Shown: positions 49,562 to 54,089 of the stretch, one piece after another
How the letters are laid out: every line of letters begins with the position of its first letter
How positions within the stretch are numbered: the first letter of the stretch is position 1
Origin: Vicugna vicugna
Lineage: Eukaryota
DNA length: 64,000 nt
Assembly: GCA_013265495.1 (NCBI GenBank)
Contig: MU057724.1
Span: 372,001 to 436,000, forward strand
Direction of reading: 5' to 3'
Notes under the pieces: model-generated
The model's input: the letters and a program-made list of their open reading frames with translations, nothing else
Databases searched by the model: none
What the model was told of the DNA's origin: nothing
Position numbers and translations under genes: made by a program

Positions 49562-51870
49562 TGATAGAATAAGGAACACTTGATTATCTGGCATTATTTT
49601 TCATTAAGAGAAAAGCTTATATCGCTTTCATGAAAATTCTTGATAGTAAGTCCTTTACATAAGTCACAAAAGAAACTCACTAAAATGTAATTAATTTCAT
49701 TTTACTCAAAAATTATTTCAGTCCTAGCAGCCATTCTTGTAAAACCACCATTAAGTCCCATGTGGAAACACTGCTGTAGTAAGTAATCCCTGAGACGTGC
49801 AGGTCATTGTATGAGGTTGGCCTTTTTTTTGTAACTTAAGAGTCGACCTCTGCTGGTGAAGTGCCTGTGCAGTGACGGACTGAGTGCTTCAACAGCAGCG
49901 CAGTGTGAGGAGGTGGCCTTTAGAGGGCATCCCAGCAGGCGTGCCCCTTCGCTGCGTGGTCCTCGCTGCCCTGTATCTGATGGAGGTGGCAGTTAGTCTG
50001 GGTTTCACCAAGGGCTGCAGAGGAGGCTGAATGAAAACCCCTGAGTCTTCTGACCTCGGGAATCGCTCGGGCTTTAACTCTGCAGGGTGTGGATGCTGCT
50101 CACACTTCCAGAAACAGCGGAGGGAGGGCGGCGCCCCAGCCTGCTCCCTGGAGCAGAGGAGTCTGGGGAGCTGTGCTCCCAGCTCTAGTGACTGGAAATA
50201 ACTGGTCCTCAGGCCCCAGCCGAGCTGTGGGCAGCACACAGCCCTGTGTGCCAGGAGTTGTGAGGCCAGTTCCTGAGCCCAAGTGGAAGACAGACGTCCA
50301 GGGGACAAGCAAGAGCTGGCCTTCCTTTCCACTAAAGAGCACTCTGAACAGGGTCCCAGCTAGACGAGTGCTGCTGCCAGCTCTGTAATGGCAGATGACG
50401 CAGGAAACAGGTGCTGTCACCAAATCAAGCCCTCAGCCAGCGCCAATGTCTAAACCTGGTGCTTCAGCACCAGTGTAGGAATTACGCAGCTGTAGATGAA
50501 GTCCAACCCCAAGGGAACCGGAGCTGAGTGAGTGAATCCGGGCTCCGTCCTGGTGGATCGGCCTTTCCTGACACAGCTGTAACTGCCCAGTGGTCTGGGA
50601 GTCTCCGAACGCAAGAGGGCCTTGTCCCCCAGGGCAGGGCCCAGCGGCAGAGCTTGCTGGAGGTCTCTAGAGGGAAGAGTCCCAGGAAGGGGGAGTGAGC
50701 CTGTAAAAATTCAGGACCCCGAGAACCCCAGAAAGCGGGGAGGAGGGGAGGGTGTGTTCACGCGAGAGCTCTGCCCACCCGCCCACCTGCCCCTGAATTC
50801 TGAGAGCTGCTCCCTCAGAGGTGCAGGTGCAGGTGTGGAGGGTGCACCTCGTGACTCTGAGAGGCGCCTCTCCCATCCTTACAAGGCGGCCTGTGAGCAC
50901 AGGTGGGGCTGTGCAGGCTGGGATCCTGGCTCCGCCAACCTTCAGTGCTCAGGACACAGCAAGCGCTCAGTGCCCAATACCGCTCCCGTGAGCCAAGTAA
51001 GGACACCAGGGTTTTCTTACTAGGACAATTCAGCTCAATTGCTACAAACGTGTCTTATAAATGCTACAACACAATGCAATTGCATTTGAACTTTTCCTTA
51101 TAATTTTGACCCTGAAAGATACCCAGACTGGCTGGATCGACCTTACTTGATTTGCACACACACACAACACACTGTCCATCCAGCATCCCCCACAAATACA
51201 ACCAACTCCACCCAAGGGCTCAACAATCAGCAAGAAGAACGAGGAACCCAGACACCATGACCCACTCCCAGCACGAGGTTAGCAGAAATCTGCCTCAAGG
51301 AAGTACTGCTACATATCAAATCTGGGGTGATTCCTTAAAATACCTCTGCAATTTAATTTTTTAAACTTTTTTGAAATAAGTTTCAGGCTTACCCAAAAGT
51401 TGTAAGGATAATACAATTCCCATTTACCTTGCACTCAAATTCCTTTAATGTTAACATTTTCTCAACTCAGCTTTTATCATTACCCATAAATGTGTTTTTA
51501 ACTGAGCCTGCATTCCAGTCAGGATTTCCCTTTGCCTCTAAGTACTTCCTAAAAACCACATGTATCCTCAAACAGCCAGCTTGCCTTACGTAACCACCAC
51601 AGGACAATTTCATAACAATCAAAAAAATCAGTATTTGCCCCCTCTACAGACAATTAAAATCTCATCAGTTGTCTCAACAATGGTTTTCACAGCAAAAATG
51701 AAAATAGCCTGTTTCTGCTTCAGGGTCACAAGCTGCGTTTAGTTTTCGGGCGTCTCCTCTTCAGCCTGGCACATGCCTCGGGATTTTATCTTTTCATGCC
51801 CTTGACATTTTTAAAGAATACAAACCAGTTTTTTTTTGTAAATGTCCTGAAGTTGGGTTTGTCTGAGGTC

Positions 51871-52540
51871 TTTTTTTCCCCCCACAGACCACATCTTTAT
51901 TCATTCACCAGTCGATGGGCACTTAAGCTGCTTCCAAGGGTTGGCTACTGCAAATAATGCTACTACGAACACTGGGGTGCATGTGTCCCTTCAAACCAGT
52001 GTCTCCATTTTCCTCAGGAAAATACCTAGATGGGGAACTGCTGGCCTGAATGGTAGTTCTATTTTTAATTTTTTCTAGGAACCTCCATACTGCTCTCCAC
52101 AGTGGCTGCACCAATCCACACTGCCCCCAACAGTGCACGAGGGCTGCCTGTCCTCCACACCCTCTCCAACACTCGTTGCTTGTCCCTTGGTAACAGCCAC
52201 TCGGACAGGTGGGAGGTGACAGCCCACTGTGGTCCTGAGCCGCACCCCCGCTGACGAGCAGTGCTGAGCATCCTTGTGTCCGCCTGTATCTGCACGGCCT
52301 CTTTGGAAAAACGTCTATTCAAGTCCTCTGCCCTCCTTTTAGTCAGGTGCTTTGTTTTTTGATGTTGAGTTGTTTGAGCTCTATTGTACATCTTGGATAT
52401 TAACTCCTTCTCAGATACACTGTTGATAAATACCTTCTTCCACTCAGTATGCAGTCTTTTTCTCTTGTCAATCCCCCTTCGCTGTGCAAAAGCTTTCTCG
52501 TTTGTAGTCCCATTTGTTGAGCTTTGCTTGTTTCCCTTGC
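51871..52540 (-). mobile_element. LINE-1 ORF2 3' segment fused to the PMS1 retrocopy
   Basis: L1-type text (CGLVQPLWRAVWRFL; aaagctcaacaaatgggactac) ending in an A7 tract. Confidence 0.85.
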
Positions 52541-53390
52541 CTTGTTATATATTAAAAACAACCCTTACATCAGCTTTAAGTAGACCACAGCATAGGAGAT
52601 CTTGGACCTTTTTCATTTCATATTTACGCTTTTTAGCAGTTAGTAAAATTGCTCTCTTACAGGTTGACCCATGAACAGTTACAGTTGTGCCCATCCCCAT
52701 GGATAAGATGGTTTTCTGCTGGCGTCTTCAATCCAATGTGTGGACGTGATGGTGGTCCTTTTGGACTTAACACAGCTTTTTTCACTTGTGGCCGTTTTCC
52801 CTTTACAGGTCTCAGAAAGCACTTGTTGCTTTGGAAGAAAATATGAAATTGTTGTTTATTCCTTCACCAAGATGTGAAGGTTTTTGAGAAATTATGTGGC
52901 CACTGCCATCCGGAACATACTGGGTGCTAAAATTATCAGCAGCTGTCCTGGTTATAATTAAAACCTCAGCTACACAACAAAAGGACCCCCAGGCTTCTCC
53001 ACACGAACCGTAAGTTGTCAGATCTTCAAGATTATCGTGGTGACTTACTTTTGAGGTGCAGCACTTCATGGCCATTACGGGTGCATCAGCACCACTGTCT
53101 CGCACCTCAGTTCTGTCAAATCCACAGTCCCCCAGCTTAACATCTGTGCTTGTAGCACTGGCATCCAGGGGGTTTTCAGTGAGTTCTTTTACAACACTGA
53201 CCACTGAGGTGATCATCTGAGAACCTGAAAGGAGGCAAACTGTTGCTGCAGGCAACTGTCTCATTCTAGCTGTCAGCAGAGTAGCTTCTTGCTTGCATGA
53301 GGTGGGCAATTACAATCCACTGGTGGGATGCTGCACTGGCCCGGGCTCGCCAATCCCCAATTCACCCCCAGCGTGCGCGGCGGGGCGGGC
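52538..53390 (-). pseudogene. PMS1: processed (intronless), 3'-truncated PMS1 retrocopy: 5'UTR plus N-terminal GHKL ATPase coding region
   Basis: ATG at 53264: [44 protein letters not shown]...QKPSHLGEG matches the PMS1 N-terminus without introns; degenerate ATPase motifs; frameshifted continuation at 52541-52690. Confidence 0.93.
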
Positions 53391-54089
53391 CTGAGGTTGG
53401 TTTCTGGGCACCACTTGGCAGGAGCACCGCGGCGGTGAGGCTGTGTGCTCAGCGCGTCACGTCAGGGGGTCAGTGAACCTGACCATTACAGGTGAGGCTG
53501 ACTCGATCACCTGAGTCTCTTCCTCGTAAATGACTATTTTTCTTCAAAATTATAAATACCTTGTGGGGAGAAAATCTGGGGCTGTGTAACTTATTTTTCG
53601 TCAGGCTTTGGGAGTAAGCTGCACATACGATCCCCTTTACCCTCGAACACTGGATCTGATCTTTAAAACAAATGAAATCACATTATTCCAACTTGGCAAT
53701 GCCTACAATTTGACATTACATCTCTCATTTCTTAAAACCTTTAAAGGTTGCCTAATCTAATTAGAATAAAATAGAAATGCCTTGTCATTCATAACCAGAA
53801 CACCATGGGATCTGACCCACCTGCTTCTGGGACCCCATGACTAATAAGAACCTTCCAGTCACCCTGGATTTCTTTCAGTGGCCAAACTGGCCCATCTTCA
53901 AGGCCCAGGACAGACACCACAACCTTCCTGCCCAGAGGCCCACTTCCGCCTGCCCCAGGCTCCTGCCCTTAGCTGCTGATGCTGTCCAGGCTCCCTCCAG
54001 GTTTCACACGTCTGCCCCATGATCTGAGCAGCAGTCCTCTCCCGAGATGGCCTGGTTCTAACTGCCAGCACTGAAGAACAGGGCGGCCA

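Follow-up and report, generated by a model that had tools for sequence, protein, structure and literature searches.

Shemesh and colleagues are said to have described, in PNAS in 2006, processed pseudogenes as fossils of alternative transcripts. Retrocopies have also been presented as records of unannotated splice forms (bioRxiv 10.1101/2020.06.07.139212), among them a new exon of MIR302CHG (PMC7692494), according to the parts of the two reports cited here. In human PMS1, the cited part of PMC11015039 describes a 91-bp pseudoexon in intron 5 that is induced by branaplam or risdiplam and is predicted to give truncated PMS1 or NMD, and forcing a cryptic exon into PMS1 is described there as lowering PMS1 and slowing CAG expansion. 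Splicing of a DNA-repair gene into an intronic DNA transposon is exemplified by CSB-PGBD3, an abundant and conserved product in which a whole transposase is fused in frame (PMC2268245). HTH_Tnp_Tc5 is a DNA-binding motif common to the transposases of the pogo superfamily, including Tigger, pogoR and Passer (PMC7386202, likewise cited in part). The locus described here, a PMS1 retrocopy on the minus strand of a 64,000-nt stretch of Vicugna vicugna DNA (the whole of which we call the window), carries a stop-bearing DNA-transposon fragment exactly at an exon junction and an L1-derived terminal exon.

Architecture of the PMS1 retrocopy

The features of the locus, in the direction of the copied mRNA and in window coordinates, are as follows.

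53390..53403, minus strand: candidate TSD, 5' copy, 12/14 identical to 51859-51846, adjoining the start of the similarity to parent exon 1
53283..53389, minus strand: PMS1 exon 1 copy, 3' part only (5' UTR), matching C7665:1393002-1393115
53132..53282, minus strand: PMS1 exon 2 copy with the ATG at 53264, 133/151 identical to the parent
52965..53131, minus strand: PMS1 exon 3 copy, 167 nt against 183 nt in the parent (16 nt shorter), 132/167 identical
52862..52964, minus strand: PMS1 exon 4 copy, complete up to the donor site, 95/103 identical
52691..52861, minus strand: 171-nt insert, putative cryptic cassette exon, matched by a profile of genomic copies as a sense pogo/Tigger-type fragment (linker and start of HTH_Tnp_Tc5)
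52812..52814, minus strand: first TGA in the PMS1 frame, 272 nt ahead of the exon 5/L1 junction
52541..52690, minus strand: PMS1 exon 5 copy, both ends complete, with an 11-nt internal deletion, 128/149 identical
51878..52540, minus strand: alternative terminal exon, a sense L1 ORF2 fragment of parent intron 5, best non-self match C7665:1444912-1445578
51896..51901, minus strand: AATAAA polyadenylation signal in the sequence of the L1 exon
51871..51877, minus strand: A7, putative remnant of the poly(A) tail, 19 nt past AATAAA and beyond the end of the similarity to the parent L1
51846..51859, minus strand: candidate TSD, 3' copy, 11 nt past A7 and not directly adjacent to it

The exons stand in the order of the parent PMS1 gene, which lies on the plus strand of C7665 and whose exons 2 and 3 have a translation identical to that of Camelus bactrianus PMS1 isoform X3. 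Introns have been removed at the parental junctions, and the claim of the first-pass annotation that the junctions other than that of the insert are cleanly spliced holds for all of them except exon 1/2, which has one extra base. The 3' end shows AATAAA (51901-51896) followed by a short and decayed A7 (51877-51871). The candidate TSD is the best pair from a search of both flanks, matching at 12/14 positions with the 3' copy 11 nt off A7; the poly(A) signal, A7 and the candidate TSD enclose the whole retrocopy unit. Elsewhere in the window, reading frames place the 3' end of a gene, which we take to be MCM4-like, at ~47.7-49.1 kb, and Rfam gave no match at gathering score in window positions 51700-53600. 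The locus is likely a single processed pseudogene that L1 made from an aberrant, truncated PMS1 mRNA; the donor of its cassette would since have been deleted, if it is not just lacking in the assembly. The copied mRNA would have comprised exons 1-4, the 171-nt cassette, exon 5 and a terminal L1 exon that supplied its own polyadenylation signal.

What follows exon 5 is L1 sequence that belongs to the copied mRNA and not to the flanking DNA, a point that the first-pass annotation had missed. Apart from itself, its best match is the sense L1 in parent intron 5 (522 bits vs 335 for the next; 523/646 identical), with 40 of 5929 candidates scored. This match begins exactly past a pyrimidine-rich CAG acceptor, and in the retrocopy it is joined to the exact end of exon 5. 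The AATAAA of the retrocopy reads AATAGG in the parent copy today. The same intron-5 L1 acceptor is used by XP_074220124.1 (Camelus bactrianus PMS1 isoform X3), whose tail agrees in 28/28 residues with C7665:1444911-1444994; in that protein, however, exon 4 is followed at once by the L1 exon, whereas the retrocopy has the cassette and exon 5 in between. On the evidence of the retrocopy, camel PMS1 would have been using this acceptor for at least tens of millions of years. In many mammals, annotated PMS1 isoforms run only a short way past exon 4 or 5 and end in tails peculiar to the lineage. Introns 4 and 5 of PMS1 seem prone to cryptic terminal exons.

Nature of the 171-nt insert

On the minus strand, similarity to PMS1 breaks off at 52862 and is taken up again at 52690, with 171 nt in between, as the first-pass annotation had read from the letters, and comparison with the parent gene confirms the break. 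The parental exon ends also place it at the PMS1 exon 4/5 boundary: exon 4 ends at C7665:1413314 (CAAG/GT) and exon 5 starts at 1426952 (CAG/GTAC), with an intron 4 of 13,637 nt in between. Both exon ends are fully kept around the insert (52861-52691), with a one-base G ambiguity on each side. The several in-frame stops reported earlier were found again, five of them in the PMS1 frame with the first TGA at 52814-52812. The insert shows no poly(A) and no TSD or other flanking direct repeat, as had been stated, and an inverted repeat is also absent. A random insertion would fall onto a junction with a chance of ~1.1% (5 junctions x 3 registers, 1341 nt). The exact position on the junction, the absence of any loss of exon bases and the lack of a TSD support a cassette exon. 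Simple intron retention or exon extension was ruled out, as the parent intron begins and ends with unrelated sequence.

The insert had been described as non-repetitive, which is wrong: over its whole length it aligns collinearly as a fragment of an old dispersed repeat family. In a genome-wide search of the 2.03-Gb assembly with the insert, 3 of 3 candidates were scored: the query and two matches over part of its length, at 75% and 77%. When one of these partial matches was searched in turn, 40 of 73 candidates were scored and all 40 matched, at 66–82% identity if the query is left aside. A family profile of 22 genomic copies (20 of those 40 and the first two), built on the ~570-nt core common to the copies, detects the insert at E 1.9e-16; no other part of the window scores below E 3. 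The insert is collinear with profile positions 241-431 and matches in 124/164 columns. Its 3' 76 nt scored better than 150/150 shuffles in the profile test; the last 32 nt alone were not significant (37/150 shuffles), nor was the 3' part in an earlier single-copy test, in which 31/500 shuffles reached the score.

The class of the element was read from its coding remains. HTH_Tnp_Tc5 (PF03221) reaches the Pfam cut-off in 1/15 family pieces (22.3 vs 22.2 bits) and is found in another copy at E 0.0046, below the cut-off. The insert's own two frames gave no HTH_Tnp_Tc5 match, and the insert is tied to the family through the DNA profile. No BrkDBD or CENP-B_N match was obtained in the 15 short, decayed family pieces scanned, and searches of PDB and longer proteins with a family copy returned nothing useful and no full-length protein match. 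The family may be akin to POGK/Passer. These comparisons identify the insert as part of an ancient DNA transposon of the pogo/Tigger type, lying in sense orientation and derived from within the transposase region. Transposition into the retrocopy was ruled out, since copies that are 66–82% alike make the family too old for such a jump, the fragment is internal, and TSD and inverted repeat are lacking.

At the position of the insert start, 12/19 family copies have AG, in a weak acceptor context (GAG with a poor pyrimidine tract). Past the insert end the profile reads ATGAAAG; most copies have ATG there, and GT occurs in 1/16. The earlier proposal that the copied mRNA was an alternative isoform gains support from the exact junction, from the AG in most copies and from the second cryptic exon, that of parent intron 5. 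The insert is the likelier to be a spliced exon because the same mRNA carries a transposon-derived terminal exon that can be traced to the parent. As a sequence, the insert has aged like its relatives. It is 76% identical to the profile majority, compared with a mean of 77.6% for ordinary copies, and so shows no sign of selection; 21 family copies are 63–74% identical to the insert, and ~nine indels separate it from the profile.

One frame of the insert (window 52657-52863, minus strand), partly the old transposase frame, runs through 57 codons without a stop. This openness is probably inherited, and Pfam gave no match for the frame. An original cassette that was open and frame-preserving would have fused the N-terminal ATPase of PMS1 with a transposase HTH, in the manner of CSB-PGBD3. 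The first 14 codons do stay in the transposase frame, the profile span of 191 nt with one extra base near the start amounts to 192 nt in a frame without stop in the profile majority, and the retrocopy has its own deletions in exons 3 and 5. However, most of the ~nine indels should predate retroposition, since the retrocopy is younger than the element, and no such isoform occurs among the 98 PMS1 proteins sampled. We give this fusion hardly any credence.

Search for a donor in the parent locus

Neither BLASTN at word size 7 nor the family profile found a match to the insert in intron 4 or in C7665:1382500-1506499 (124 kb). The best intron-4 BLASTN matches to the insert were 11-mers, and a genome search with its 3' 80 nt returned only itself. 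In a sensitivity control with mutated donors planted in the intron, 40/40, 40/40, 37/40 and 32/40 were recovered at 15, 20, 25 and 30% substitution, respectively. The first-pass annotation had expected the insert within the parental PMS1 intron with AG...GT flanks, and this expectation failed in a search that found every simulated donor at 20%. Intron 4 holds N runs of 140 and 409 nt, inside the 3' ends of young L1 elements. A similar L1 in the window has 586 nt where the spans with these runs have 263 and 418 nt. The runs are thus smaller than the L1 sequence expected there, which can account for them, and they probably hide no donor.

The absence of the donor from the assembled parent is the main result against the cassette reading; the weak family acceptor and the rarity of GT at the end position also count against it. 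A missing intron match and a transposon match had both been named beforehand as grounds for giving up the idea, and both were obtained. The first carries the weight just described. The second leaves a cassette exon standing, since such exons commonly arise by exonisation of transposons.

A missing donor is what would be expected if the insert stemmed from an unrelated RNA or DNA molecule, taken up either when the reverse transcriptase switched templates twice or through templated capture at a break formed later, with the junction hit by chance or through short AG(G) microhomology. At this point exon 4 ends in AAG and the element has GAG. Retrocopies made by LTR elements have been described as undergoing repeated template switching (PMC5470649). 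The differences of the insert are also free of GC bias, with 14 vs 14 AT-to-GC changes against the profile compared with 94 vs 16 for the L1 exon against the parent, although these comparisons are not like for like. But this origin requires an exact out-and-back at one exon junction without loss or duplication, for which the position alone has the chance of ~1.1% given above. It has no closer donor either, as the best non-self matches are the two at 75% and 77% over part of the length and the 3' 80 nt match only themselves. The other odd segment of the same mRNA is, moreover, a true spliced exon. We regard a switch or capture as unlikely, and an exon spliced from a donor since lost to the assembled parent as the preferred origin of the insert.

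Across the five segments of the retrocopy aligned to the parent (window 51878-53389), G/C stands for A/T at 149 positions vs 35 in the opposite sense, in a two-sequence comparison that is unpolarised. The G/C excess suggests GC-biased gene conversion at the retrocopy locus.

Parent intron 4 contains a separate conserved element. The peptide that follows exon 4 in a Tasmanian devil PMS1 isoform (UniRef100_A0A7N4NUD8) matches camel C7665:1414806-1414907 in 26/34 residues at E 1.6e-20. The element (C7665:1414806-1414992) has an in-phase, pyrimidine-rich TAG acceptor and, 186 nt on, CAG/GTATGC, which together would delimit a stop-bearing cassette. It is single-copy in the genome, and it gave no Rfam match at gathering score and no other protein match. 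The element may be a conserved poison exon or an enhancer, with one annotated isoform in favour of its splicing. It is unrelated to the 171-nt insert. Conserved as far as marsupials, it would be a better candidate for a natural regulatory exon than the insert.

Function, age and comparison with known systems

The isoform sample comprised at least 98 PMS1 proteins, 87 with the exon-4 end and 38 flagged as non-canonical. The 38 flagged tails include 2 canonical lizard sequences and many cases of intron-4 read-through, and none of the PMS1 isoforms sampled has an insert-like tail. In the literature searched, with the supplementary isoform figures of PMC11015039 outside its scope, no report was found of a PMS1 intron-4 cassette exon or of PMS1 with Tigger.

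The cassette could have been, or in other mammals could still be, a regulated poison exon that tunes PMS1 by AS-NMD. NMD acts on stops more than 50–55 nt upstream of the last junction; in the retrocopy as it stands the first stop lies 272 nt upstream, and the family sequence has 4, 0 and 3 stops across its three frames. PMS1 has been lowered through a stop-bearing pseudoexon in human cells (PMC11015039, in the part cited), but that known pseudoexon is the one of 91 bp in intron 5. Against such a function stand also the decay of the insert at the rate of ordinary copies, which shows no constraint, the absence of the donor from the parent assembly, and the lack of an insert-like tail after exon 4 among the 87 proteins with the exon-4 end. 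The stops in the insert may postdate retroposition. We consider a regulated poison exon quite improbable. The unannotated AS-NMD switch put forward in the first-pass annotation is not supported: the segment is a decayed piece of a transposon, with no donor in the assembled intron and no insert-like tail among the isoforms sampled, and the mRNA was already truncated by its L1 terminal exon. The insert is probably not a PMS1-lowering switch.

In its most far-reaching form, the proposal would make the retrocopy the surviving record of a stop-bearing PMS1 switch that operated in germ cells of the early camel lineage or of wider artiodactyls, by means of a DNA-transposon exon that camels have lost and that is perhaps present and inducible in relatives. 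This is a long shot. If true, it would mean that intron 4 of PMS1, a modifier of repeat-expansion disease, has contained a natural off-switch.

The age of the locus was estimated from sequence divergence. The difference between two neutral copies is ~19%, compared with ~23% between family copies and their majority, and the retrocopy would be ~40% as old as the element, i.e., tens of millions of years. Over such a time a neutral fragment in an intron can well be lost by deletion; the poly(A) signal of the parent L1 has also changed. When 35 words of the insert region were sampled in sequencing runs, organisms A and B held all of them, organism C a share of 0.91 and organism D up to 0.63, counting shared words only; 11/20 of the word-holding runs may come from the source of this DNA. 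By word shares alone, the insert stretch appears to be common to relatives (organisms C and D).

Up to 0.63 of the words sampled from window positions 52600-52960 are present in RNA runs, of organism D and of a reproductive-system sample. These shares could reflect read-through from the MCM4-like gene or DNA in the libraries, and the RNA runs of organism D with 0.63 or 0.29 of the words were not taken as evidence of transcription. No inclusion of the cassette was seen in RNA: in a mapping of two DNA and two RNA runs at 80% likeness, nothing was placed from the RNA runs, and the retrocopy's own DNA contigs were likewise unplaced. The one piece that came out of this mapping, 35 nt with 5 differences, maps to C8534, where it has no wider similarity, and was taken as chance.

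On the preferred reading, an ancient pogo/Tigger-type fragment would have lain in sense orientation in PMS1 intron 4, where the element itself would have supplied the AG acceptor and a single transition in the family's ATG the GT donor. The fragment would have been spliced at a low level in a germ-line cell, and the resulting mRNA retroposed tens of millions of years ago, after which the intronic donor would have been deleted from the parent, unless this assembly merely lacks it. Most likely the cassette arose as splicing noise and served no selected function, and ancient noise is favoured over a working switch because the source of the 171 nt was not found in the assembled parent gene. The retrocopy would then be a clear case of a record of germ-line splicing that is tens of millions of years old, with the unusual trait that the source of the recorded exon is no longer in the assembled parent gene.

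The human pseudoexon described in the cited part of PMC11015039 resembles the insert as a stop-bearing cryptic exon of the same gene, but the insert differs in its length of 171 nt and is set apart by its position between exons 4 and 5. CSB-PGBD3, as far as the cited part of its report goes, shares with the locus the combination of a DNA-repair gene with DNA-transposon sequence, whereas the PMS1 fragment is short, frameshifted, unconserved and confined to a pseudogene. With the pogo-superfamily transposons Tigger, pogoR and Passer, the family of the insert has HTH_Tnp_Tc5 in common, while the insert itself is only a decayed internal fragment. The locus also resembles the fossil retrocopies, which are likewise L1-made copies that keep an unannotated splice form. 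In contrast to those, the PMS1 copy would hold two transposon-derived exons, one of them with a donor that is not in the assembled parent, and the copy may be the only trace that this exon has left.
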